In this document: positions 14,690 to 63,497 of the stretch, one piece after another | How the letters are laid out: each line of letters starts with the position of its first letter | How positions within the stretch are numbered: position 1 is the stretch's first letter | DNA from: Eledone cirrhosa | Taxonomy: Eukaryota | Assembly: GCA_964016885.1 (NCBI GenBank) | Contig: OZ024742.1 | Coordinates: forward strand, 354,330,001-354,394,000 | DNA length: 64,000 nt | Direction: 5' to 3' | Program-made: the position numbers and the translations under genes | The notes under the pieces: generated by a model | Database searches by the model: none | What the model saw: only the letters and a program-made list of their open reading frames with translations | Told to the model about the DNA's origin: nothing

Positions 14690-15000
14690 GGAATAGAATG
14701 AAACGAAATTTAATTTCTCACACCTAGTACGGCAGTTACTTAAATGTAAGTATGTCTGTATGTATTCGTACATACATATATGTATACAGACCTACAGTAG
14801 TATGTATATATATACATATATGCACACATATATATATGCACGTATCGGTTTACCGAACATTTACTATAATGCTCGGTTTGTTTGTTTGTAAACAAACAAA
14901 CAGCGGAATTATATATATATACATAGGTTATTCCGGGTTGAATCGGAGGCAACCACAGTAAGTAAGGTACTCAATACATAGCAGAGTATATAAGATTTAA

Positions 15001-15113
15001 TATAGATGAGATTCTACAGGACTAGAATTGTTTCATTCTTTAGAAATCAACAGTAATCTCCTGATGATTTCTAAAGAATGAAACAGTTCTAGTCCTGTAG
15101 AATCTCATCTATA
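15001..15113. mobile_element. short foldback with hammerhead core
   Basis: ~52-bp inverted arms; + strand 15061-15094 reads CUGAUGA-UUUC UAAA GAAU-GAAA-C..GUC; the 5' strand of stem I is missing at the inversion point. Confidence 0.7.
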
Positions 15114-15799: not shown

Positions 15800-16703
15800 A
15801 TATTGTTATACTTGGGGATGGTCATATTGTTACTTTACTAGTAAGAAATGTTATATATAAAGTAAACCACCGGATAAAAAGTAAAACTAGAAACGTAGTC
15901 TATAGCATAATATGTACAGAGGGTACTTGAAGAACATGACAACAACATACATAGGCAAGACAGCTCGTAGCTTAGGGAAAAGGGTAGACCAACATTTCGA
16001 ACTAAAAGGACGAAAAAACGGTTCAGTACTATACGAACACGCCAGACAACAAAATGACAGTAACATAGACAACATAGAAATTAAAATAATATCTAAACAT
16101 AGAAATGACCCAGCACATAGGCAAATCAGAGATGGAAGTGAAATAGATCTTAGAAGGCCAAAGCTGAACAGAATAAATCAATGGAATAACAACAACACCC
16201 AACCAAACAATACTGACTTAAGAGAAATGTAAATAAATAAATATATACACAAGCATAATAACAACAAACACATGTAAACACATTCTAGTAAACTAAGAGA
16301 GAATGCAATAACCAAAAACAAGTCACCCAAACGCGAACACACACCAAACACTATACACACACGCAAACGCATGCGCAGAGAGGAAGTAAAACATAAATAA
16401 ATAAATAAACAGATAAGATAAAGATGGCGTAGACATACAATACAGCAGGAGGAACATAATAGTACCACTGATGATGTTGCAGATGTGCAACGAAAGAACT
16501 TCGTTAGACTATATATATGTGTTTATATCTATATTATATCTGTATTTTTGACCGTTGGTCAGTCAATGGTAAACATTGAGGACCGAATGAATTAACTGTG
16601 GAGATATAAATGACACAGAAGCGAAAACCAGCCAAACAGTGAGTGTGTTATGTTATTAATTATGGCAATAGTATTACAACAACATGAACTTCCCCAAGTA
16701 TAA

Positions 16704-20749: not shown

Positions 20750-21998
20750 TAAGTTGCTGGCATTTTTCGATTTCAGCAAATTCAGTCATAAAAAAATCTA
20801 TCTAAATCTAATATGTTGCATGTTAGTATTTCAAGGTTGTCAGTGAAGAGGAAGGAAATGAAAACAAAATCAACCCAAAATAGATATATTCTGATTTGAA
20901 ATGACTAAAAATGGATTTTCAATTTTGCTAAACCAATTGATCTGACAAATCTCAGCAATATAACAAAAATGAATGTCTGTTGCAGATTGGGAATAATCTT
21001 GAACTTTGAGCTGGTAACAATATTGATAGGAAAATTATGGGCCATTCATTTTTATGTAGCTCAATAACTATAGAAGAGAAAGTAGGGCTTAAAGAATTTC
21101 TAGGCAAAAGACATTTGGCCGTCATCCAGAAATCACATTGCTATTTGGATTGAATAGAAATTGACGTATAATATATGAAATATAAAATAATTTTCGTTTT
21201 TCTAATAGTATGTCTATAGCAATAACAACATGACAAGAGGCATGGTTAATTTGGAGATATAAATATAAATACAAAAAATCGTGAATACATCTCTCCGAAA
21301 TTAAATGTGGTCATATCAATATTTTATATTGCTACTATGTCAATATATTCAGTTCTGAAGCTGGATAGATGCAAAGAAATGTTTATGGAGTTTCTTCCCC
21401 AACATCCTCTATGTTGTACTGCAACAAATATAAAATCTTCCATGAAGCTACTATGATGATAACATATATTTCAATGTTACTTCTCACATTTTAAGCATCT
21501 ACTATTGATCGGGTCTATAACATAATACGCTAATCTGTCTTTTGCAGATTCTTAGCATCAGATCATGATAAATCTATAACTGTTGATATAAGCAAAACTC
21601 TACAATTAATAGATAAAGTACGAAATGTGAGAAAAAAATTGAAATCCTACAGTTTGTTCTCGATTTGTATAAAGCATGATAGCTGGGGTACAATATCTCT
21701 TACAAGATCTCTTTGGATTTGTACGTGTGTTATAGTTATAGAGGTATTTATTTACGCTTTAATTTATATATTTAATTATCGTGTCTATAGTCTGCTTTTC
21801 ATGGGTTATATATTCCATACGCTGGTGCTTTTATTCCCTGTTTTATTGATAGCGCACTGTATATCTCTCTCTAGTGTGTTACCTTTACAACATATTGTAT
21901 TTTAAAGAGCTCAGGATTTCTGCTCCTTAGATCACATTATTTACAGGGAATGGCGAGGGCCTATGGCTCCGTTAATTTATTGTGATATATATATATAT

Positions 21999-22326
<328 letters not shown>

Positions 22327-22385
22327 TATACATATATATATATATACATATATACATATATGTATATATATATACATATATATAC

Positions 22386-22419
<34 letters not shown>

Positions 22420-22447
22420 ATATATACATATACATATACATATACAT

Positions 22448-22504
<57 letters not shown>

Positions 22505-22922
22505 GATATATATACATGTATATATATATATACATATATATATACATATACATATATATATATAGATATATATACATATACATATATATATATAGATAGA
22601 TATACATATATATACATATATATAGATATATATATACATATATTGTTATACTTTGGGAGGGTCATGTTGCCAGAAACGAAATATATACATACACATATAT
22701 ATATATAGATATATATACATATATATACATATATATAGATATACGTATATATATATATATATATTGGAATAAATGCTCTGAAATAGCGATATATATATGA
22801 ATATAGACATAGAATATTCGAAAAATATTCTGTATGTTTATAATAAACATTTTGAAGACCTAATCGCTATAGAATAGAATACGTCACGTATTACAATTAG
22901 ATTCTCGATAAAAGCAAGGGAA

Positions 22923-23587
22923 GTAATCTACGCGTTTCATTCTTGTTAGAATTCATCAGGACTACATATCCAGTGCTTTTATCGAGAATGACACAGCTAG
23001 AGACTTATAGAATACTTAGCTGTGTACAGGAACTGGTTTGAAAGAGCGGTTGCCGGTCCGGCAGAAATTAGAAATTGGAATAAATGCTCTGAAATAGCGA
23101 TATATATATGAATATAGACATAGAATATTCGAAAAATATTCTGTATGTTTATAATAAACATTTTGAAGACCTAATCGCTATAGAATAGAATACGTCACGT
23201 ATTACAATTAGATTCTCGATAAAAGCAAGGGAAGTAATCTACGCGTTTCATTCTTGTTAGAATTCATCAGGACTACATATCCAGTGCTTTTATCGAGAAT
23301 GACACAGCTAGAGACTTATAGAATACTTAGCTGTGTACAGGAACTGGTTTGAAAGAGCGGTTGCCGGTCCGGCAGAAATTAGAAATTGGAATAAATGCTC
23401 TGAAATAGCGATATATATATGAATATAGACATAGAATATTCGAAAAATATTCTGTATGTTTATAATAAACATTTTGAAGACCTAATCGCTATAGAATAGA
23501 ATACGTCACGTATTACAATTAGATTCTCGATAAAAGCAAGGGAAGTAATCTACGCGTTTCATTCTTGTTAGAATTCATCAGGACTAC
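22923..23587 (-). ncRNA. three minimal type I hammerheads (22923-22965, 23234-23276, 23545-23587)
   Basis: GUAGUC-CUGAUGA-AUUC UAACAA GAAU-GAAA-CGCG-UA/GAUUAC. Confidence 0.9.
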
Positions 23588-23861
23588 ATATCCAGTGCTT
23601 TTATCGAGAATGACACAGCTAGAGACTTATAGAATACTTAGCTGTGTACAGGAACTGGTTTGAAAGAGCGGTTGCCGGTCCGGCAGAAATTAGAAATTGG
23701 AATAAATGCTCTGAAATAGCGATATATATATGAATATAGACATAGAATATTCGAAAAATATTCTGTATGTTTATAATAAACATTTTGAAGACCTAATCGC
23801 TATAGAATAGAATACGTCACGTATTACAATTAGATTCTCGATAAAAGCAAGCACTGGATAT

Positions 23862-25148
23862 GTAGTCCTGATGAATTCTAACAAGAATGAAACGCGTAGA
23901 TTACTTCCCTTGCTTTTATCGAGAATCTAATTGTAATACGTGACGTATTCTATTCTATAGCGATTAGGTCTTCAAAATGTTTATTATAAACATACAGAAT
24001 ATTTTTCGAATATTCTATGTCTATATTCATATATATATCGCTATTTCAGAGCATTTATTCCAATTTCTAATTTCTGCCGGACCGGCAACCGCTCTTTCAA
24101 ACCAGTTCCTGTACACAGCTAAGTATTCTATAAGTCTCTAGCTGTGTCATTCTCGATAAAAGCACTGGATATGTAGTCCTGATGAATTCTAACAAGAATG
24201 AAACGCGTAGATTACTTCCCTTGCTTTTATCGAGAATCTAATTGTAATACGTGACGTATTCTATTCTATAGCGATTAGGTCTTCAAAATGTTTATTATAA
24301 ACATACAGAATATTTTTCGAATATTCTATGTCTATATTCATATATATATCGCTATTTCAGAGCATTTATTCCAATTTCTAATTTCTGCCGGACCGGCAAC
24401 CGCTCTTTCAAACCAGTTCCTGTACACAGCTAAGTATTCTATAAGTCTCTAGCTGTGTCATTCTCGATAAAAGCACTGGATATGTAGTCCTGATGAATTC
24501 TAACAAGAATGAAACGCGTAGATTACTTCCCTTGCTTTTATCGAGAATCTAATTGTAATACGTGACGTATTCTATTCTATAGCGATTAGGTCTTCAAAAT
24601 GTTTATTATAAACATACAGAATATTTTTCGAATATTCTATGTCTATATTCATATATATATCGCTATTTCAGAGCATTTATTCCAATTTCTAATTTCTGCC
24701 GGACCGGCAACCGCTCTTTCAAACCAGTTCCTGTACACAGCTAAGTATTCTATAAGTCTCTAGCTGTGTCATTCTCGATAAAAGCACTGGATATGTAGTC
24801 CTGATGAATTCTAACAAGAATGAAACGCGTAGATTACTTCCCTTGCTTTTATCGAGAATCTAATTGTAATACGTGACGTATTCTATTCTATAGCGATTAG
24901 GTCTTCAAAATGTTTATTATAAACATACAGAATATTTTTCGAATATTCTATGTCTATATTCATATATATATCGCTATTTCAGAGCATTTATTCCAATTTC
25001 TAATTTCTGCCGGACCGGCAACCGCTCTTTCAAACCAGTTCCTGTACACAGCTAAGTATTCTATAAGTCTCTAGCTGTGTCATTCTCGATAAAAGCACTG
25101 GATATGTAGTCCTGATGAATTCTAACAAGAATGAAACGCGTAGATTAC
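23862..25148 (+). ncRNA. five minimal type I hammerheads (43 nt each, starting at 23862, 24173, 24484, 24795, 25106)
   Basis: Same motif; 6-bp stem I, 4-bp stem II, palindromic stem III ACGCGU, GUA cleavage triplet. Confidence 0.9.
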
Positions 25149-25209
25149 TTCCCTTGCTTTTATCGAGAATCTAATTGTAATACGTGACGTATTCTATTCT
25201 ATAGCGATT

Positions 25210-25409
25210 NNNNNNNNNNNNNNNNNNNNNNNNNNNNNNNNNNNNNNNNNNNNNNNNNNNNNNNNNNNNNNNNNNNNNNNNNNNNNNNNNNNNNNNNNNN
25301 NNNNNNNNNNNNNNNNNNNNNNNNNNNNNNNNNNNNNNNNNNNNNNNNNNNNNNNNNNNNNNNNNNNNNNNNNNNNNNNNNNNNNNNNNNNNNNNNNNNN
25401 NNNNNNNNN
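25210..25409. other. assembly gap
   Basis: 200 N. Confidence 1.
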
Positions 25410-25927: not shown

Positions 25928-26448
25928 AATCTTCTATACACAATCATACACACCCGTGTATATTTATCTATCTATATATATTCACATATATTATCACTTC
26001 GGAAGAAGGATAAGAATGGAGAGAGAGGTGCTTGGCCACAGGCAGTTTTATGAAAGGTGGGTGATAGTGGCGAGAATGGCTCGTGTAAATGGGCCTTCTC
26101 TGTATACCATCCTGTAGGTAAAGAAGTAAAGGAGAGGGGATCACCTTCTCCATGTGCTCCCCGGGCAAAGGATTGCACACTTTTTCGGGGGTGTGTGCAA
26201 CCCCCATCACCTCCCCTCCCTTTTGAGGTTATTTTCGATTATTTTCATGTTATACCCTTTTTACTCGATCGTATGTAAACTCCCCCTTTGTATTTGTCCC
26301 TTCTTTTTATGCCTTTATGGTAAATATAGAAATATATATATATTCATATATATATATATATATATGAAAAAGTATGACCCTGACGACAGAATTCAAGACG
26401 TTTCGACGGCTATTTCGGTCGCGAAAACTCCTTACCACAACTACTTCG

Positions 26449-26499
<51 letters not shown>

Positions 26500-34809: not shown

Positions 34810-37504
<2,695 letters not shown>

Positions 37505-37506
<2 letters not shown>

Positions 37507-37775
37507 AAAATGACGTAGATATTACAATACAATACAATAGTACCACTGATGATGTTGCAGATGTGAAACGAAAGAACTTTGATAGACTATATATATATAT
37601 ATGTATATTTATATCTGTATTTTTAACCGTTGGTCAGTCAATGATAAACGTTGATTGCCAAATACATTAACTATGGAGATATAAAAGATACAGAAGCGCA
37701 AACCAACCAAACAATGAGTGTGTTCTGTTATTATTTCTGGGAATATTATTACAACAATATGACCCTCCCCAAGTA
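37505..37775 (+). mobile_element. PLE 3' UTR fragment with HHR (37537-37590)
   Basis: Homologous to 16420-16706; CUGAUGA..GAAA-GAAC-UU/UGAUAGACUAU. Confidence 0.75.
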
Positions 37776-37801
37776 TATATTTGTAAGTATGCACACACAC
37801 A

Positions 37802-41165: not shown

Positions 41166-41214
<49 letters not shown>

Positions 41215-41216
<2 letters not shown>

Positions 41217-44200
41217 GATAAATCTACCAAAATATACGGTAGTGTCCAATCCGTATGAAGAACTCAATGTAATCCAAATATCATGAAAACAGAATATAAT
41301 AGGTCTGTTTGGGAACAGGTTTTGAATTGACCAATAGAAAAGTAGCAAGTGGTGAAGGTGATAGAATAGTAGTAGTAGAAATTTAATTTAGGGGTAGAGG
41401 AATGCAGACTTCAGTTTTGAATGGAAATAGTATTTTGATTGAAAAGATTACTTTGGGGATGAAAATAGGTCAAGCTGGTGAAAGGTACACGAACATTTGA
41501 TGTTATTAAAGAATAATGGTAATGTTAAAATCTAAGGAGAATAAAATTTTACTATAAATGTGTTAGTGAAATATATCAATCTTATTTAAAACATAAGGAA
41601 TATAGATCTATAAAAAGAAATTAAATTAATTTAATTGATAGGTATATTTTTAGGGATACATTTATATTAATTCATATAGATATGATAAATAAGACAGAGA
41701 TGTTATTAAAGAATGTTGTTAAAAACGAAGGAAACAAATGAGGGGGGGGGGGGGTAAATGTATTAGTGAAATATAACAAATTTATATAGATTATAAGGAA
41801 TTTAGATTCATAACAGGAAATTAAAATAGTTTATATGCATACTTATTGGTATAAGTTTTAGAAAAAGATAGCTGTAAAAGGGAAATAAAATTATGCAGTT
41901 CTTAGTAGTAGAATATTAATTATAGGTTAACTAATTTAAAAAATTAATTATAATAATTTGTAAAATATAAGTGTATATTAATTAGGTTTATAATATTTGA
42001 AAGTTTTTCTAATTCTCTGATTGCATGATATAATTAATTATTGTCGCTTATTTAATAGGATATCCTTAGATTTCATTATTTCAAAAAAGTTCCTGGGAAC
42101 ATAATCTACATTCATATCTATTATTTTGATAATTGGTGGCCCTTTTGAGCACACTCCTTGTCAAGTTATAATCGATATTCTTTTTTCTATAATTATTAAT
42201 TACTTCAGCTAAGGATGTTGTATTAGCTAATGCGGCATTTTTAAAACTGTGCTTGTGGGTATTAAATCTTACTTTAAATTGGTTAGAAGTAGCTCCTATA
42301 TATGAATAAGTTGAGTCCTTAGTGCTCATTTTACATTTATATACTTTGTTATTAATAAGGCAATTTCCTTTTAATGGGCAATTTGCTTTGTTTCTACAGT
42401 TACAACCTTTCGTGAATGTTATATCAGGCGAGTTAGTCAAATTAGGTGTGGAATTTTCTCGACTTGTTTTATGTGAATGAGATGGTGGTTTGCTGTGGTT
42501 TATTTTAGTATTATGGTTAGTTTGATGGGTTGGTGGTATATTCATGTTTTTTTTACATTTATATGCATTGTAGGCACTTATATTTTGTTGTATATTTTTG
42601 GTTGTTGAGTAAGAGAATTTGACCGTTGATCTATTTAAAATTTGATGGTATTTATGGTTTGGCGGGAAGTTTTTCTCTAGGATAGAAAAACATTGTTTAG
42701 GTATATTATCTTTAATTTGTAGATTAAATGGAGCATTATACCAAGTAACTCGTCTATAACGGTTTCGATGTTGTTTTTTATTAATATCCGATGCATCCTG
42801 ATGTTTACTAAGAGAATTAGTATTTTATTACACATATTTTTAGTTAGATTCACTGATTTAGGTGTTTTAGCCTGATTATTAGGAATTTTGTTAGTAATGT
42901 TATTAACATATATCGGAATATTAGGATGAATGGTTTTTTGAATGTTATTATATTGTATATTAAAAGAGGTAGATAAATTAAGTTTTTAAGTTGGTATTTT
43001 GGGGTATAGTGTGAGTGGAATTTAGGTGTGTATATTTCATTTGTTGTTTGTTGGGAATATTGGGTTGTATGTTTGTAGTACTATTGGTACAAGGTATATA
43101 TACTAATTTGTTTTTGTGGCCGCTTCTAGCTAAAGCTTCGTTATAAACGGTCGCATTTTTATCGAATACATCCTGGTTAGATGAAAGGTTAGACATTCTG
43201 AGTGATATATTATATGCTAGATTTTTAGGATAGATTTAGGGTGATTAGATTTCGAGTGTATGTAATGTAAGTTTTGGTTAGGTTTATGGTAAGCTTGGTA
43301 GATACCCGTAGATAAGTCTAAATTTATATCTAGGAAATTAACTACTTTAATTGTGTTTTCAAATCTAATAGTGAGACTACAATAGTCTTTGAGGAAAGTT
43401 CTAATAATTTTTTTTTTTTTTTCAATTTCTGATAGGCTAAGGTTAGTGGAAAGAAGAAGACAGTCATCACGATATAAACCACATTTAAGGTGGGGAAAAG
43501 AAGCATTTATGTTAAATAGAAGAAATATGCCCACAAGATCGGTAATTTGGGCAGAATTGCTAGAGCCCATAGTAATATCGAATAGATTACTATATGTATT
43601 TCTGGTCCAGTATTCCTTCTGAAATTCCAGTAGTGTTTGTCTAGCGTGCGTGATAATATTAATGTCATCCATAGTTAAGTGTAATCTATTTTTGGCAAAT
43701 ATCAAGACTTTGTTCATGAGTATGGGTGATATAGATGGATAATAAGCATCTATATCGAATCGTAGAAATGAAGCAGATGAGTTATTTGTAATTGCCTAAT
43801 AGATATGAATGTAGATTATGTTCCCAGGAACTTTTTGAAATAATGAAATCTAAAGATATCCTATTAAATAAGCAACAAGACTTAATTATATCATGCAATC
43901 ATAGAATTAGAAAAACTTTCAAATATTATAAACCTAATTAATATACACTTATATTTTACAAATTATTATAATTAATTTTTTTAAAATTAGTTAATCTATA
44001 ATTAATATTCTACTACTAAGAACTGCATGATTTTATTTCCCTTTTACAGCTATCTTTTCCTAAAACTTATACCAATAAGTTTACATGTAAACTATTTTAA
44101 TTTGCTGTTATGAATCTAAATTCCTTATAATCTATATAAATTTGTTATTTCTCACTAATACATCCCCACCCCCCATTTTTTTTCCTTCGTTTCTAAAAAC

Positions 44201-44845
44201 ATTCTTTAATAACACCTAACTCTTATTCATCATATCTATATGAATTAATATAAATTTATCCCTATAAATATACCTATGAATTAAATTAATTTAATTTGTG
44301 TTTATAGATCTATATTCCTTATGTTTTAAATAAGATTGATATTTTTCACTAACACATTTATAGTAACATTTTATTCTCCTTAGATTTTAACATTAGCATC
44401 ATTCTTTAATAACATCAAATTATCGTGTACCTTTCGCCAGCTTGACCTATTTTCATCCCCAAAGTAATCATTTCATTCAAGATACTCTTTCCATTGAAAA
44501 CTGAAATCTGCTTTCCTCTACCCCTAAATTAAATTTCTACTACTACTATTCTATCAACTTCACCACTTACTACTTTTCTATTGGTCAATTCAAAACCTGT
44601 TCCCAAACAGACCTCTTATATTAAATCTTTGTTGTTTTTTTTCAATAAACAAATATCATTATTTCTGAAGACAGCATATATATGTGTACGTATGTATCTT
44701 CCCTGTGATAGTTTGTAAACCTTTACATATATCTATATGATATACATACCAACACACACATATATATCCTAGAAACGATCGTAAAATGATGAATTTTTAA
44801 TATAAGGAACTGTTTCTTTGTTTTTATTCATTATTTTATTAATTA
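41215..44845 (-). mobile_element. Penelope-like element (RT + GIY-YIG) with ~800-bp inverted 3' duplication
   Basis: Minus strand FLRFDIDAYYPSI, TMGSSNSAQITDL, YRDD, NFLDINL, SNHP, CNCRNKANCPLKGNC, YIGATS; ~41300-42110 is inverted at ~43812-44620; frameshifts and stops. Confidence 0.9.
44656..44792 (+). ncRNA. hammerhead ribozyme with ~100-nt stem II
   Basis: UCAUUAUUU-CUGAAGA-...AUAUAUAUGUGU...ACACAUAUAUAU..-GAAA-CGAUCG-UA/AAAUGAUGA; 9-bp stem I, palindromic stem III. Confidence 0.75.
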
Positions 44846-44865
44846 ATTTATATATATATATATAT

Positions 44866-47800
44866 ATATTAGAAAGATCGAGTATCGAAAAATCGGCGCA
44901 CGAGTTCACGATAAACGGAATTCGATATGAGCGGCAGAGGGCTCAATAATTCAGATGAATCAGAGCTATAACTATCGTTAAAATACCGTCACATATAGAA
45001 CAAGTCTACAATCAACCATACGATTTAAAATCGATAAAGGAAGATTCGGGCCAAACAGATAAAAAATATCAATAAAACAATACGTCAATAATTTAAATGA
45101 ATGTAAAATCATACCCGGACCCACTAGAAAGGTGTTAAATCTAGCTTCATGGGTTTCTGTAAATCCTTAGACTGTACTCTATCAGCTCACATATAAATAT
45201 AAAAGCCTACTAGAATAAGTGGAACGGAGTTTACGTTGTCAACGAGTTTTATCCTGGCGGCAAAGGAGTCAACTAGCGGTGAAAAACGCACATGGCATTA
45301 GACAAGGGAGATGACCCCTATATCCGCGAAAACAATTCGAGTGAATGTGGAAATACACATATCGAATTAGAGTGCTCAATAGACATGTTAAAATAAAACA
45401 AAAGCTATTCATCACTCAATAGAATCGACAAAAAATGAGCAATAAAATTAACTGGTGGATAGCTATGTCCAGAGCTAAATATATTAGAAAGATCGAGTAT
45501 CGAAAAATCGGCGCACGAGTTCACGATAAACGGAATTCGATATGAGCGGCAGAGGGCTCAATAATTCAGATGAATCAGAGCTATAACTATCGTTAAAATA
45601 CCGTCACATATAGAACAAGTCTACAATCAACCATACGATTTAAAATCGATAAAGGAAGATTCGGGCCAAACAGATAAAAAATATCAATAAAACAATACGT
45701 CAATAATTTAAATGAATGTAAAATCATACCCGGACCCACTAGAAAGGTGTTAAATCTAGCTTCATGGGTTTCTGTAAATCCTTAGACTGTACTCTATCAG
45801 CTCACATATAAATATAAAAGCCTACTAGAATAAGTGGAACGGAGTTTACGTTGTCAACGAGTTTTATCCTGGCGGCAAAGGAGTCAACTAGCGGTGAAAA
45901 ACGCACATGGCATTAGACAAGGGAGATGACCCCTATATCCGCGAAAACAATTCGAGTGAATGTGGAAATACACATATCGAATTAGAGTGCTCAATAGACA
46001 TGTTAAAATAAAACAAAAGCTATTCATCACTCAATAGAATCGACAAAAAATGAGCAATAAAATTAACTGGTGGATAGCTATGTCCAGAGCTAAATATATT
46101 AGAAAGATCGAGTATCGAAAAATCGGCGCACGAGTTCACGATAAACGGAATTCGATATGAGCGGCAGAGGGCTCAATAATTCAGATGAATCAGAGCTATA
46201 ACTATCGTTAAAATACCGTCACATATAGAACAAGTCTACAATCAACCATACGATTTAAAATCGATAAAGGAAGATTCGGGCCAAACAGATAAAAAATATC
46301 AATAAAACAATACGTCAATAATTTAAATGAATGTAAAATCATACCCGGACCCACTAGAAAGGTGTTAAATCTAGCTTCATGGGTTTCTGTAAATCCTTAG
46401 ACTGTACTCTATCAGCTCACATATAAATATAAAAGCCTACTAGAATAAGTGGAACGGAGTTTACGTTGTCAACGAGTTTTATCCTGGCGGCAAAGGAGTC
46501 AACTAGCGGTGAAAAACGCACATGGCATTAGACAAGGGAGATGACCCTTATATCCGCGAAAACAATTCGAGTGAATGTGGAAATACACATATCGAATTAG
46601 AGTGCTCAATAGACATGTTAAAATAAAACAAAAGCTATTCATCACTCAATAGAATCGACAAAAAATGAGCAATAAAATTAACTGGTGGATAGCTATGTCC
46701 AGAGCTAAATATATTAGAAAGATCGAGTATCGAAAAATCGGCGCACGAGTTCACGATAAACGGAATTCGATATGAGCGGCAGAGGGCTCAATAATTCAGA
46801 TGAATCAGAGCTATAACTATCGTTAAAATACCGTCACATATAGAACAAGTCTACAATCAACCATACGATTTAAAATCGATAAAGGAAGATTCGGGCCAAA
46901 CAGATAAAAAATATCAATAAAACAATACGTCAATAATTTAAATGAATGTAAAATCATACCCGGACCCACTAGAAAGGTGTTAAATCTAGCTTCATGGGTT
47001 TCTGTAAATCCTTAGACTGTACTCTATCAGCTCACATATAAATATAAAAGCCTACTAGAATAAGTGGAACGGAGTTTACGTTGTCAACGAGTTTTATCCT
47101 GGCGGCAAAGGAGTCAACTAGCGGTGAAAAACGCACATGGCATTAGACAAGGGAGATGACCCCTATATCCGCGAAAACAATTCGAGTGAATGTGGAAATA
47201 CACATATCGAATTAGAGTGCTCAATAGACATGTTAAAATAAAACAAAAGCTATTCATCACTCAATAGAATCGACAAAAAATGAGCAATAAAATTAACTGG
47301 TGGATAGCTATGTCCAGAGCTAAATATATTAGAAAGATCGAGTATCGAAAAATCGGCGCACGAGTTCACGATAAACGGAATTCGATATGAGCGGCAGAGG
47401 GCTCAATAATTCAGATGAATCAGAGCTATAACTATCGTTAAAATACCGTCACATATAGAACAAGTCTACAATCAACCATACGATTTAAAATCGATAAAGG
47501 AAGATTCGGGCCAAACAGATAAAAAATATCAATAAAACAATACGTCAATAATTTAAATGAATGTAAAATCATACCCGGACCCACTAGAAAGGTGTTAAAT
47601 CTAGCTTCATGGGTTTCTGTAAATCCTTAGACTGTACTCTATCAGCTCACATATAAATATAAAAGCCTACTAGAATAAGTGGAACGGAGTTTACGTTGTC
47701 AACGAGTTTTATCCTGGCGGCAAAGGAGTCAACTAGCGGTGAAAAACGCACATGGCATTAGACAAGGGAGATGACCCCTATATCCGCGAAAACAATTCGA

Positions 47801-50800
47801 GTGAATGTGGAAATACACATATCGAATTAGAGTGCTCAATAGACATGTTAAAATAAAACAAAAGCTATTCATCACTCAATAGAATCGACAAAAAATGAGC
47901 AATAAAATTAACTGGTGGATAGCTATGTCCAGAGCTAAATATATTAGAAAGATCGAGTATCGAAAAATCGGCGCACGAGTTCACGATAAACGGAATTCGA
48001 TATGAGCGGCAGAGGGCTCAATAATTCAGATGAATCAGAGCTATAACTATCGTTAAAATACCGTCACATATAGAACAAGTCTACAATCAACCATACGATT
48101 TAAAATCGATAAAGGAAGATTCGGGCCAAACAGATAAAAAATATCAATAAAACAATACGTCAATAATTTAAATGAATGTAAAATCATACCCGGACCCACT
48201 AGAAAGGTGTTAAATCTAGCTTCATGGGTTTCTGTAAATCCTTAGACTGTACTCTATCAGCTCACATATAAATATAAAAGCCTACTAGAATAAGTGGAAC
48301 GGAGTTTACGTTGTCAACGAGTTTTATCCTGGCGGCAAAGGAGTCAACTAGCGGTGAAAAACGCACATGGCATTAGACAAGGGAGATGACCCCTATATCC
48401 GCGAAAACAATTCGAGTGAATGTGGAAATACACATATCGAATTAGAGTGCTCAATAGACATGTTAAAATAAAACAAAAGCTATTCATCACTCAATAGAAT
48501 CGACAAAAAATGAGCAATAAAATTAACTGGTGGATAGCTATGTCCAGAGCTAAATATATTAGAAAGATCGAGTATCGAAAAATCGGCGCACGAGTTCACG
48601 ATAAACGGAATTCGATATGAGCGGCAGAGGGCTCAATAATTCAGATGAATCAGAGCTATAACTATCGTTAAAATACCGTCACATATAGAACAAGTCTACA
48701 ATCAACCATACGATTTAAAATCGATAAAGGAAGATTCGGGCCAAACAGATAAAAAATATCAATAAAACAATACGTCAATAATTTAAATGAATGTAAAATC
48801 ATACCCGGACCCACTAGAAAGGTGTTAAATCTAGCTTCATGGGTTTCTGTAAATCCTTAGACTGTACTCTATCAGCTCACATATAAATATAAAAGCCTAC
48901 TAGAATAAGTGGAACGGAGTTTACGTTGTCAACGAGTTTTATCCTGGCGGCAAAGGAGTCAACTAGCGGTGAAAAACGCACATGGCATTAGACAAGGGAG
49001 ATGACCCCTATATCCGCGAAAACAATTCGAGTGAATGTGGAAATACACATATCGAATTAGAGTGCTCAATAGACATGTTAAAATAAAACAAAAGCTATTC
49101 ATCACTCAATAGAATCGACAAAAAATGAGCAATAAAATTAACTGGTGGATAGCTATGTCCAGAGCTAAATATATTAGAAAGATCGAGTATCGAAAAATCG
49201 GCGCACGAGTTCACGATAAACGGAATTCGATATGAGCGGCAGAGGGCTCAATAATTCAGATGAATCAGAGCTATAACTATCGTTAAAATACCGTCACATA
49301 TAGAACAAGTCTACAATCAACCATACGATTTAAAATCGATAAAGGAAGATTCGGGCCAAACAGATAAAAAATATCAATAAAACAATACGTCAATAATTTA
49401 AATGAATGTAAAATCATACCCGGACCCACTAGAAAGGTGTTAAATCTAGCTTCATGGGTTTCTGTAAATCCTTAGACTGTACTCTATCAGCTCACATATA
49501 AATATAAAAGCCTACTAGAATAAGTGGAACGGAGTTTACGTTGTCAACGAGTTTTATCCTGGCGGCAAAGGAGTCAACTAGCGGTGAAAAACGCACATGG
49601 CATTAGACAAGGGAGATGACCCCTATATCCGCGAAAACAATTCGAGTGAATGTGGAAATACACATATCGAATTAGAGTGCTCAATAGACATGTTAAAATA
49701 AAACAAAAGCTATTCATCACTCAATAGAATCGACAAAAAATGAGCAATAAAATTAACTGGTGGATAGCTATGTCCAGAGCTAAATATATTAGAAAGATCG
49801 AGTATCGAAAAATCGGCGCACGAGTTCACGATAAACGGAATTCGATATGAGCGGCAGAGGGCTCAATAATTCAGATGAATCAGAGCTATAACTATCGTTA
49901 AAATACCGTCACATATAGAACAAGTCTACAATCAACCATACGATTTAAAATCGATAAAGGAAGATTCGGGCCAAACAGATAAAAAATATCAATAAAACAA
50001 TACGTCAATAATTTAAATGAATGTAAAATCATACCCGGACCCACTAGAAAGGTGTTAAATCTAGCTTCATGGGTTTCTGTAAATCCTTAGACTGTACTCT
50101 ATCAGCTCACATATAAATATAAAAGCCTACTAGAATAAGTGGAACGGAGTTTACGTTGTCAACGAGTTTTATCCTGGCGGCAAAGGAGTCAACTAGCGGT
50201 GAAAAACGCACATGGCATTAGACAAGGGAGATGACCCCTATATCCGCGAAAACAATTCGAGTGAATGTGGAAATACACATATCGAATTAGAGTGCTCAAT
50301 AGACATGTTAAAATAAAACAAAAGCTATTCATCACTCAATAGAATCGACAAAAAATGAGCAATAAAATTAACTGGTGGATAGCTATGTCCAGAGCTAAAT
50401 ATATTAGAAAGATCGAGTATCGAAAAATCGGCGCACGAGTTCACGATAAACGGAATTCGATATGAGCGGCAGAGGGCTCAATAATTCAGATGAATCAGAG
50501 CTATAACTATCGTTAAAATACCGTCACATATAGAACAAGTCTACAATCAACCATACGATTTAAAATCGATAAAGGAAGATTCGGGCCAAACAGATAAAAA
50601 ATATCAATAAAACAATACGTCAATAATTTAAATGAATGTAAAATCATACCCGGACCCACTAGAAAGGTGTTAAATCTAGCTTCATGGGTTTCTGTAAATC
50701 CTTAGACTGTACTCTATCAGCTCACATATAAATATAAAAGCCTACTAGAATAAGTGGAACGGAGTTTACGTTGTCAACGAGTTTTATCCTGGCGGCAAAG

Positions 50801-52645
50801 GAGTCAACTAGCGGTGAAAAACGCACATGGCATTAGACAAGGGAGATGACCCCTATATCCGCGAAAACAATTCGAGTGAATGTGGAAATACACATATCGA
50901 ATTAGAGTGCTCAATAGACATGTTAAAATAAAACAAAAGCTATTCATCACTCAATAGAATCGACAAAAAATGAGCAATAAAATTAACTGGTGGATAGCTA
51001 TGTCCAGAGCTAAATATATTAGAAAGATCGAGTATCGAAAAATCGGCGCACGAGTTCACGATAAACGGAATTCGATATGAGCGGCAGAGGGCTCAATAAT
51101 TCAGATGAATCAGAGCTATAACTATCGTTAAAATACCGTCACATATAGAACAAGTCTACAATCAACCATACGATTTAAAATCGATAAAGGAAGATTCGGG
51201 CCAAACAGATAAAAAATATCAATAAAACAATACGTCAATAATTTAAATGAATGTAAAATCATACCCGGACCCACTAGAAAGGTGTTAAATCTAGCTTCAT
51301 GGGTTTCTGTAAATCCTTAGACTGTACTCTATCAGCTCACATATAAATATAAAAGCCTACTAGAATAAGTGGAACGGAGTTTACGTTGTCAACGAGTTTT
51401 ATCCTGGCGGCAAAGGAGTCAACTAGCGGTGAAAAACGCACATGGCATTAGACAAGGGAGATGACCCCTATATCCGCGAAAACAATTCGAGTGAATGTGG
51501 AAATACACATATCGAATTAGAGTGCTCAATAGACATGTTAAAATAAAACAAAAGCTATTCATCACTCAATAGAATCGACAAAAAATGAGCAATAAAATTA
51601 ACTGGTGGATAGCTATGTCCAGAGCTAAATATATTAGAAAGATCGAGTATCGAAAAATCGGCGCACGAGTTCACGATAAACGGAATTCGATATGAGCGGC
51701 AGAGGGCTCAATAATTCAGATGAATCAGAGCTATAACTATCGTTAAAATACCGTCACATATAGAACAAGTCTACAATCAACCATACGATTTAAAATCGAT
51801 AAAGGAAGATTCGGGCCAAACAGATAAAAAATATCAATAAAACAATACGTCAATAATTTAAATGAATGTAAAATCATACCCGGACCCACTAGAAAGGTGT
51901 TAAATCTAGCTTCATGGGTTTCTGTAAATCCTTAGACTGTACTCTATCAGCTCACATATAAATATAAAAGCCTACTAGAATAAGTGGAACGGAGTTTACG
52001 TTGTCAACGAGTTTTATCCTGGCGGCAAAGGAGTCAACTAGCGGTGAAAAACGCACATGGCATTAGACAAGGGAGATGACCCCTATATCCGCGAAAACAA
52101 TTCGAGTGAATGTGGAAATACACATATCGAATTAGAGTGCTCAATAGACATGTTAAAATAAAACAAAAGCTATTCATCACTCAATAGAATCGACAAAAAA
52201 TGAGCAATAAAATTAACTGGTGGATAGCTATGTCCAGAGCTAAATATATTAGAAAGATCGAGTATCGAAAAATCGGCGCACGAGTTCACGATAAACGGAA
52301 TTCGATATGAGCGGCAGAGGGCTCAATAATTCAGATGAATCAGAGCTATAACTATCGTTAAAATACCGTCACATATAGAACAAGTCTACAATCAACCATA
52401 CGATTTAAAATCGATAAAGGAAGATTCGGGCCAAACAGATAAAAAATATCAATAAAACAATACGTCAATAATTTAAATGAATGTAAAATCATACCCGGAC
52501 CCACTAGAAAGGTGTTAAATCTAGCTTCATGGGTTTCTGTAAATCCTTAGACTGTACTCTATCAGCTCACATATAAATATAAAAGCCTACTAGAATAAGT
52601 GGAACGGAGTTTACGTTGTCAACGAGTTTTATCCTGGCGGCAAAG
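44866..52645. repeat. 615-bp tandem array x12.6 within (TA)n
   Basis: AGAAAGATCG at 44871, 45486, 46101 ... 52251; only one substitution noticed (~46548); no ORF in the track. Confidence 0.95.
45109..45196 (-). ncRNA. candidate atypical hammerhead, one per 615-bp unit (13 copies)
   Basis: CUGAUAGA-GUA C AGUC UAAG GAUU UAC-A-GAAA-CCCA..CUAGA..UCUAG UGGG-UC; stem I is weak next to the core. Confidence 0.45.
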
Positions 52646-55700: not shown

Positions 55701-56232
55701 GTGATGGTAAGATTAATGATTCTGCCTGCATTTATAGTAATAAATATATGAAATGTAGAAGCATATTTAAAATATACCTTATGTAGATATGGAAATAATA
55801 AATTATTATTCATTTCGGAGTAGTTCGATCATCAAATAATCACATTTATGTGATATCTACTTCAAAGGTATTTATGAAATTAAAAGGTATTTATGAAATT
55901 CAGAGTAGTCAAAAGGTAATTGTGTTAAATAACAGATAAATATATTTATCAAAACCAGAAAAAAGGGATAAGTAGAGATCGAAAGCATTGTATAACGAAA
56001 TGTCTCAAATCCGAAACAATTATTTGTAGACACCTAGAGTTTATTGATTCTAGTATTAACATTATGGGTGGGAGATTGATATAAATAGAGTGACAAAGAG
56101 AGGCGGAATGAGTGAAACCACACGCTTACATGGAGACACACACACTCACACACAGATATATATATATTTTAGTCCAGAATTAGCCGTCGAAACGGCTTGA
56201 GCTCAGCCGTTGGGATCCTGCTCGTTCCTATA

Positions 56233-56991
<759 letters not shown>

Positions 56992-61633: not shown

Positions 61634-61689
<56 letters not shown>

Positions 61690-61693
<4 letters not shown>

Positions 61694-62145
61694 AGTACAA
61701 TAACAAAAACACACATATTAACACACACTAGTGAACAAAGAGAGAATACAAAAACGCATACACTCAAACACGAACACACACACCAAGCAGGATACACACA
61801 CGCAAACATGTGCACAAACAGAGGCATAGATAAGACTAAATGAATAAATTAATTATTTAAATAAAAGAGGCGTAGGCATTACAATACAATGGGAGGAAAC
61901 ATAATAGTACCACTGATGATGGCACTGATGTGTGACGAAAGAACTTTGATAGACTATACATAATTTTATATCTGTATACATAACCGTTGTTCAATCAATG
62001 ATAAACATTGATTACCAGGTAAATTAAATATGGAGATATAAAATATACAGAAGCGAAAATCAACCCAAACCAAACAGTGAGTGTGTTCTGGTGTTATTTC
62101 TGGCAATATTATAACAATATGACTCTCCCAAAATTTAACAATATT
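61690..62145 (+). mobile_element. PLE 3' UTR fragment with HHR (61904-61957)
   Basis: Homologous to 16250-16706; CUGAUGA..GAC-GAAA-GAAC-UU/UGAUAGACUAU. Confidence 0.75.
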
Positions 62146-62279
62146 TGTTTCAAAACACGATTACATCTCAAAGACATTGCAAAACGTATATATATATATA
62201 TACTCAGCCGTCGGGGTCCTGACTCCTTTCCTACACACACACACCCCCACACACACCCCCACACACATATATATATATG

Positions 62280-63497
62280 TGTGACTAGACATAGGGTTAG
62301 ACATGTAACACCTAGAGTAAACGGCCAAAACACGAATAACGTAAACCCTAGAAACAATAGAAGAAACAGACAAAGAAAATACCTATGGTTCAACCCAATA
62401 TTCAACTCCTCTATAAAAACTAGACTGCCCTCTATATTCTTTAAACTAATAGATAAACACTTCCCTATCTCGCATAGATATCACAAAATACTCAATAGAT
62501 CTACTATAAAACTCTCTTTCTCAACAGAAGCTAACATAGAATCACACATACGCAAGATCAACCACAGAAATATCTCAAGTAAATCAATTGCACCTATACA
62601 TAAGCACAAACTCATCACAACATCACAACCACAAGCGCATACGAACGCGCAGCAGCAAAACCCCATTGGCCATATATCACAACCCACTTATAACAGGGTA
62701 CTAAATAGGAATGTAAAGGCTGCACAAAATAGCGCCTCAAACTGCAACTGTCACCTCCCAGATAGGTGCCCATTGGCGAATAGATGTCTCGATTCGAGCC
62801 TGGTGTACATGTGCACTGTCATCTCGGGTAACTCCACCTGGAATTACATAGGATCCACCGCGGGTTCTTTTAAGAAAAGATGGTATGTGCACAGGCACTC
62901 AATGAAAAACCGAGCACTTATGGGTTCCACCACCCTCGCCAGAAAAATATGGGAATTGAAGGACAGCAACGCTAGCTACACTATCAACTGGTCGAAGTTG
63001 TCGGCTGCTAAAACCTATAGTACAGGGATGTCCTATTGCAGGCTGTGTGATCTTGAGCTATTGTATATCCTTTGAAATGTTAAAAGGCTACTTAATAATA
63101 AGTTAGAAAGATCTATCTTCTGCAGACATAGAATAGCCACTAAATTCATAAGATTCAAACCTCCGTGAATCGAACCAACATAACATAGCTTTAAATTAGG
63201 ATACCTACTACCCACAGAAATATATTCATTAAGTATACTATTTCCTTCACAAGTCTATACCGCACAATTGTCTGTAAATACCTCATCTACCAACAATCTT
63301 ACTCCTTCTCAGCTGCTGCAATCATTTGATCCTAGATCCTAGTTTTTTCTCATTTCACTACTACAATGTTACTTTACCCTCTTTTTGCCATAATTACAAT
63401 TAGCAGGCTTTTCTCTTTGCATGTATGTATATTTTCGTACGAGTGTATATTGATGTGTATCTATGTGTCTATGTACACATATATGTGTGTATATATT

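Follow-up and report, generated by a model that had tools for sequence, protein, structure and literature searches.

The window analysed here is a stretch of 64,000 nt from Eledone cirrhosa contig OZ024742.1 (positions 354,330,001-354,394,000; assembly GCA_964016885.1, 3.0 Gb). In it, two tandem arrays of one 311-bp unit lie head to head between (TA)n-rich sequence on the left and an assembly gap on the right (Table 1). The two arms form perfect inverted repeats of 1,089 bp (22763-23851 versus 23909-24997; 100% identical) around a ribozyme motif. The first-pass annotation had described divergent hammerhead arrays and a palindrome with arms longer than 1 kb, and the minus-strand array (22763-23851), the plus-strand array that it meets (23849-25209) and the measured length of the perfect arms bear out both descriptions. 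It had also placed the strand change exactly in the 16-bp inverted repeat (IR) that closes the ribozyme. The sequence quoted for that junction is present at 23834-23862, but the joint itself is a 3-bp microhomology, AAG, with 4 extra bases, rather than a change of strand inside the 16-bp match: the left arm overruns the IR by 2 bases, and the right arm begins again within the IR.

Table 1. Features of the two-armed 311-bp array, its flanks and the neighbouring coding element (positions in the window)
Feature	Position	Strand	Remark
(TA)n-rich microsatellite, left-hand target	22183-22762	.	from sequence
Left arm, 3.5 copies of the 311-bp unit, 1,089 bp, RNA sense leftward	22763-23851	-	outer end at unit 227
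26-bp segment (unit 202-227) separating the two fixed ends of the family	22763-22788	-	end mapping
16-bp IR sequence at the joint	23834-23849	+	reverse complement of the left array's IR arm 2, identical to arm 1
AAG microhomology common to both arms, the actual joint	23849-23851	.	4 bases beyond a clean IR switch
57-bp spacer separating the perfect inverted arms, the ribozyme motif	23852-23908	+	arm alignment
Type I hammerhead motif adjoining the joint	23853-23918	+	CUGAUGA at 23868, 5-bp stem II, GAAA, minimal stem III
Right arm, at least 4.4 copies of the left arm's monomer, 1,361 bp, RNA sense rightward	23849-25209	+	cut by the gap
One whole 311-bp unit	24149-24459	+	unit position 1 at 24149; IR arms 24149-24164 and 24222-24237
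Assembly gap, 200 N, then (CA)/(TA) microsatellite	25210-25409	.	from sequence
GIY-YIG endonuclease-like frame of the coding element	42081-42824	-	Atlas clusters
RT-like frame of the coding element	43217-43795	-	Atlas clusters
Inverted copy of the coding element's 3' part	43797-44622		joined at 43795/43797

The IR occurs once per unit, with its arms at unit positions 1-16 and 74-89, and flanks a type I hammerhead motif. In the predicted fold, it forms the outer stem that closes the ribozyme (-32.4 kcal/mol, z -5.97, equalled by none of 200 shuffled sequences). CUGAUGA (at unit position 31), stem II, GAAA, stem III and the UH at the cut site could be read in all eight complete motifs of the window, and stem I is found in the fold. 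Stem III is minimal, with a palindromic CGCG, and the cut is predicted after unit position 61 (after 23898 in the motif adjoining the joint). Rfam Hammerhead_HH9 matched the motif with 23 bits (E 0.0025), below its gathering score of 52; at the gathering threshold, Rfam gave no match in the window. Rfam matches to miRNA families were rejected, as they reflect the long hairpin only. Over the arrays, there is no open reading frame of 150 amino acids or more except for microsatellite frames that end at the array edge, and the unit contains no frame for a reverse transcriptase (RT) with a GIY-YIG endonuclease, so it is not an autonomous Penelope-like element.

Metazoan non-LTR retrozymes are described in the main texts of Cervera and de la Pena (2020; PMC7229834) and of Li, Clavereau and Pollet (2026; bioRxiv 10.64898/2026.07.22.740005) as low-GC, non-coding tandem units of 170-400 nt in thousands of copies, and the same texts propose that tandem cDNAs are made from a circle and mobilised by Penelope-like elements. 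The 311-bp unit has the corresponding sequence features: it is tandem, non-coding, low in GC, within this size range, dispersed in thousands of copies and without an LTR, and carries one type I hammerhead motif. Its minimal stem III with a palindromic tetraloop is like that of axolotl HHR_Amex1 and, by comparison with PMC7229834, suggests cleavage in a putative dimer form. Cleavage, expression and circles have been demonstrated in the retrozymes of those papers, whereas the 311-bp family is described here from its sequence.

In the whole genome, we found 3,748 exact copies of the ribozyme core and none of a reversed control pattern. Outer ends abutting (TA)n gave 734 exact matches at unit 201 and 1,041 at unit 227. 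Because 45 of 69 tabulated far ends lie at unit 227, these 1,041 exact ends correspond to a family of roughly 1,600 loci, a lower bound that counts exact matches only. We then picked 80 loci by the 201 end alone (the first 85 places listed, all on one contig, minus 4 taken earlier and 1 within another stretch; a second copy inside L173 and an element common to L103 and L104 were each counted once). Seventy-five of them were head-to-head, none was convergent, 4 were single-armed and 1 ran off its stretch. The far end, where visible, was at unit 227-234 in all 71 cases (the 69 tabulated loci plus L151 and L166, which carry a small extra piece at the joint). Among loci picked instead by BLAST, by the ribozyme or by an IR joint, all 38 with both ends visible had one end at 195-201 and the other at 216-234. 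An insertion of this family thus has two fixed ends, one on each side, with a tail of 26-33 bp at one of them; at the 201 end, a 10-bp AT run matches the target, and the flanks are AT-rich or (TA)n. Any target-site duplication would be masked by these microsatellite flanks.

In view of the 75 head-to-head loci among 80, such a joint is expected at nearly every locus. The flagged junction is present in the assembly and is an ordinary example of the 311-bp family, with little novelty on its own. Its left arm ends at the commonest distal end of the family. Since this end is of the 227 type, the end-pairing rule predicts that the true end of the right arm lies inside the gap, at unit 201. In contrast to the retrozyme accounts, insertions of the 311-bp family are as a rule two-armed and head-to-head, with both ends fixed. 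A search of the main texts of PMC7229834 and bioRxiv 10.64898/2026.07.22.740005 turned up no passage about array polarity, fixed ends, or arrays in inverted or head-to-head order, and a literature search, with supplements and subscription papers outside its scope, found no account of near-obligatory head-to-head retrozyme arrays with paired ends. If the locus is transcribed, read-through would give dsRNA, as would be equally true of every two-armed locus.

The position of the junction next to a gap, together with the complete identity of its arms, raises the question of a fold-back or chimeric read. Assembled contigs from 4 of 24 listed sequencing runs were compared with 23730-23908, and none of the 16 matches listed bridges the junction, so the evidence for this locus is the assembly itself and its agreement with the family rule. 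However, gap-free loci have an identical layout (an N run occurs in only 1 of the 80 sampled stretches), the absence of convergent joints is a one-sided orientation unlike that of random fold-backs, the left end is the fixed end of the family, and half of the joints in the IR region (12 of 24) are slipped, each in a different way. An assembly or library artefact is therefore very unlikely at this locus, and a fold-back artefact is unlikely at the level of the family. A plain tandem array could also have been inverted between IRs after insertion, or repaired as a palindrome, as every unit contains a 16-bp IR capable of recombination. Internal inversion should leave one divergent and one convergent joint, but no convergent joint was found, and both outer ends are 3' ends; we consider such a rearrangement exceedingly improbable.

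Some sampled loci have unusual structures. At L060, L088, L151, L166, L110 and L140, short extra pieces of the unit lie at the joint in changing orientation, which suggests repeated template jumps before sealing. At L105, 272 unrelated bases are found at the joint. L050 and L173 contain the whole two-armed insertion twice, a few kb apart and with an identical junction, probably as a result of local duplication after insertion.

The joints of the 75 head-to-head loci were compared with each other. Break points are spread across the whole unit, and the microhomology at the joint is 0-8 bp long: at least 3 bp in 27 of 75 loci (6.7% under the null), at least 4 bp in 16 (2.2% under the null) and 12 bp or more in none. 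Inserted bases were found in 20 joints. None of these 75 loci, which had been picked only by their outer end, uses the IR as its joint. Genome-wide, 24 joints fall in the neighbourhood of the IR, so that, besides the one in this window, IR-type joints of the kind first seen here exist at 23 other places. Three control windows of the same shape elsewhere in the unit gave 18, 9 and 21 joints, and the IR neighbourhood is above chance only weakly (binomial p 0.07, or 0.10 without this window). Twelve of the 24 are clean IR joints, with visible flanks that differ between places, and the other 12 are slipped or extended, all differently. The clean form makes up about 0.75% of the approximately 1,600 loci, about 21-fold over its random share; ordinary microhomologies of at least 4 bp are enriched about 10-fold, which puts the IR ahead of them by no more than a factor of about two. 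The reciprocal convergent IR joint had no match in the genome. Nor did break points cluster at the predicted ribozyme cut site: 3 of 150 lay at unit 59-64, versus about 2.9 expected (hand count). These results identify the IR as the best single annealing spot and a minor hotspot, yet not as the route by which the polarity switch is made.

The first-pass annotation had attributed the switch to template switching across the paired stem. By that account, one cDNA snaps back or switches template at the ribozyme-closing IR and copies itself into the second arm. At this locus, the joint is at the IR and the ribozyme lies between arms that form a perfect palindrome; clean IR joints are found 12 times in the genome; monomers shared by the two arms are compatible with one arm being copied from the other; and palindromes at inverted junctions are read as self-priming in PMC3846280. 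The unselected joints argue against it as a general mechanism, since none of 75 is at the IR, the 24 joints near it compare with 18, 9 and 21 in the controls, and the clean form is confined to the small share given above. Close break points of the kind that a hairpin would leave (no more than 20 bases apart) occur at 13 of 75 loci versus 9.9 expected. Either arm may be the longer one (the 201-side arm in 38 of 75 loci), and arm lengths are uncorrelated (rho 0.05, with some arms cut by the end of the stretch), while both outer ends are fixed, of the priming type and in (TA)n. Sporadic monomer variants were mirrored in the other arm in 0 of 24 cases, which is weak evidence, because later mutations would not be mirrored either. 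Taken as the cause of the switch, the fold-back is not supported and is quite improbable, but it may still have sealed this one joint.

Monomer sequences were then compared between the arms. The commonest whole monomer is identical in both arms at 43 of 48 loci, whereas only 329 of 2,080 pairs agree between loci, and at least one whole monomer is common to both arms at 47 of the 48. In this window, one monomer, a single change away from its nearest relative among 65 loci, fills both arms. If the template were a long linear multimeric RNA, or if each target end were primed on its own RNA of one variant, two-ended priming would yield the identical layout with no circle involved. Uncut RNA was the main template in vitro, where ribozyme cutting was unneeded (PMC11167929), and with a minimal stem III cutting may be slow. 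Against a linear template, monomers private to one locus were found in both of its arms in 12 of 12 cases, and 484 of 550 monomers are of the commonest form of their own locus. Moreover, 17 of 22 monomer types occur at one locus only, so a matching long source array would be needed for each. We therefore hold a linear template to be improbable. Shared monomers could also be obtained from an RNA pool dominated by one variant or by later homogenisation, so that neither a single template molecule nor a circle is proven. The longest arms exceed 20 units and, with no excess of stops at the cut site, fit a circular template without proving one.

Penelope-like elements with an endonuclease, as characterized in PMC3846280 and PMC8557442, have inverted pLTRs, tails of 30-40 bp, (TA)n targets and microhomology at their 5' joints; non-autonomous multicopy elements of Chlamys, such as MRC1, are mentioned there as well. 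A likeness to inverted pLTRs had been noted in the first pass, and the head-to-head layout (75 of 80) and asymmetric end pairs (71 of 71 and 38 of 38) support it. Like the pLTR elements in these descriptions, the 311-bp family combines a head-to-head inverted copy with an extension, or short tail, on one side only, a (TA)n target and microhomology at the joint. By its place in the layout, the 26-bp stretch at 22763-22788 may be the equivalent of the Penelope 'tail' (compare PMC11167929 and PMC8557442). The tail of 26-33 bp in this family is slightly below the 30-40 bp of PMC8557442 unless the 10-bp AT run is added. In those Penelope-like elements, an inverted copy is frequent and a tail may be absent, whereas in the 311-bp family the two-armed layout is near-obligatory. 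Both arms of the 311-bp family are multimers without an open reading frame and, unlike in the self-priming view presented in PMC3846280, the joints mostly bypass the built-in palindrome.

In vitro, the Poseidon protein of Anolis cuts both strands of AT-rich DNA and extends each of them, and synthesis starts at two internal sites of the RNA, which delimit the tail (Frangieh et al. 2024, PMC11167929). The protein is predicted to be a dimer; the start sites are not homologous to the DNA that is cut, and the two strands behaved alike, in assays that used linear RNA (PMC11167929). The main text of PMC11167929 does not show one start per side of a single insertion, or the way in which two cDNAs are joined. 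In the 311-bp family, by contrast, the 201 end matches the target through its 10-bp AT run and the ends are strictly paired, which counts against a two-ended reading.

Read directly from the loci are the head-to-head layout, the paired fixed ends, the (TA)n flanks, the presence of the same monomer in both arms, and joints at scattered unit positions in which short microhomology is over-represented. We consider it probable that the flagged junction is the central joint of one young non-coding hammerhead repeat insertion, likely made by Penelope-type two-ended priming on the same RNA and closed by microhomology. In such a process, a GIY-YIG endonuclease of Penelope type would cut both strands of the (TA)n target, and each target 3' end would serve as primer for an antisense cDNA, the two starting on one RNA at unit 201 and at unit 227-234. 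Each cDNA would make a variable number of passages round a circular monomer, after which the two cDNA ends would be joined by annealing or a template jump and then filled in. Being both antisense, the cDNAs could pair only at chance microhomologies or at self-complementary sites such as the IR. The recurrence of the IR would be explained by its being the longest complementarity between them, and at this locus the pairing would have slipped by 4 bases onto AAG. The predicted product, with 3' ends pointing outward, a 26-33-bp tail on one side and a long palindrome, is the layout observed. A more specific version is put forward tentatively, at somewhat less than even confidence: a Penelope-type dimer may sit on one circular ribozyme RNA, its two active sites starting 26-33 nt apart, each from a different end of the cut target, and rolling round the circle until any short homology joins the cDNAs.

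In L1 twin priming, two target-derived primers on one RNA likewise produce an inverted segment joined by microhomology; copying begins at the poly(A) end from the first primer, while the second primer pairs with the RNA at internal sites that vary. In the 311-bp family, unlike in twin priming, the two start sites are both internal and do not vary, and poly(A) is absent.

The window itself contains a coding element of the corresponding kind, a broken, 5'-truncated copy on the minus strand (41214-44622) with the head-to-head layout of a Penelope-like element (Table 1). Its RT-like and GIY-YIG-like frames, in that order, and its inverted arm count for the Penelope-type reading. In the Atlas clusters nearest to the coding frames, 12-13% of members are annotated with RVT_1 and 27-50% with GIY-YIG. 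Pfam assigned no family to any of 4 frames from neighbouring coding elements, and both labels depend on these clusters. The coding family has at least 150 scored matches in the genome. Comparison of the 311-bp unit with the best 30 loci of this one coding family revealed no sequence link, which counts against the two-ended reading; with 60 loci of two neighbouring families (30 coding, 30 short hairpin), the unit shared only older relatives of itself in flanks and AT-run matches. The four single-armed loci of the sample also count against two-ended priming, as do, for this window, the right end in the gap and the lack of a listed contig bridging the joint.

Several other repeats in the window are inserted in (TA)n. 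A second (TA)n family, present at 14905-15113 and studied at L206-L235, consists of short hairpins whose two head-to-head arms each contain a related hammerhead-like core, with a longer tail on one side (342 candidates). Its centre is fixed, exact in 29 of 30 loci, in contrast to the free joints of the 311-bp family, and may reflect a template whose 5' end is defined. Related short inserts, in hairpin or head-to-head form and with the core CTGACG...GTTTCGACGGC, some with one-sided tails, lie in (TA)n at 21985-22180, 26370-26450, 56169-56215 and 56527-56720. At 44861-52645, about 12.7 copies (99.9%) of a 615-bp unit run in one orientation between two (TA)n runs; this array, in which neither pattern search nor Rfam found a hammerhead (a single Rfam match on it was dismissed as chance), is possibly another non-autonomous multimer. 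Further endonuclease-like frame fragments and dispersed hammerhead-like motifs of several repeat families were seen at 769-1806, 35166-35771, 62023-63318, 16227-16703, 37352-37784 and 61669-62148, the motifs at 2346, 3171, 3751, 16468, 29397, 37546 and 61913.

The 311-bp unit was also found in 20 sequencing runs from 16 studies, filed under 17 organism labels and with the kind of run unrecorded; no RNA run containing the unit was among those listed. Three of the runs X1, X4, X5 and X6 each gave one 340-nt wrap-round contig, in X1 at very high summed depth. Such a contig could derive either from tandem DNA or from a circle, and its abundance may reflect RNA, library cross-talk or true sharing; these contigs do not enter the argument. 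Two loose contig ends in X1, one contig each, were read as other head-to-head switches.

Retrozyme units and the insertion features of Penelope-like elements are both known; what appears to be new, at the level of sequence, is the near-obligatory head-to-head retrozyme insertion with paired fixed ends. The origin of the inverted repeats and tails of Penelope-like elements and the enzyme that copies retrozyme RNAs are named as open in passages of PMC8557442, PMC3846280 and PMC7229834. The 311-bp family amounts to a built-in test: each unit carries a perfect 16-bp palindrome, and about 99% of joints bypass it. This neglect of the palindrome, together with the strict pairing of the outer ends, favours two-ended priming, and the exact start sites (unit 201 and unit 227-234) make the mechanistic question testable in vitro. 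If a dimer does work on one circle, the approximately 1,600 insertions, near-identical to one another, would document two-ended priming in vivo rather than palindrome self-priming; the inverted repeat and tail of Penelope-like elements would then come from two-ended priming, and retrozyme circles would be the true templates.
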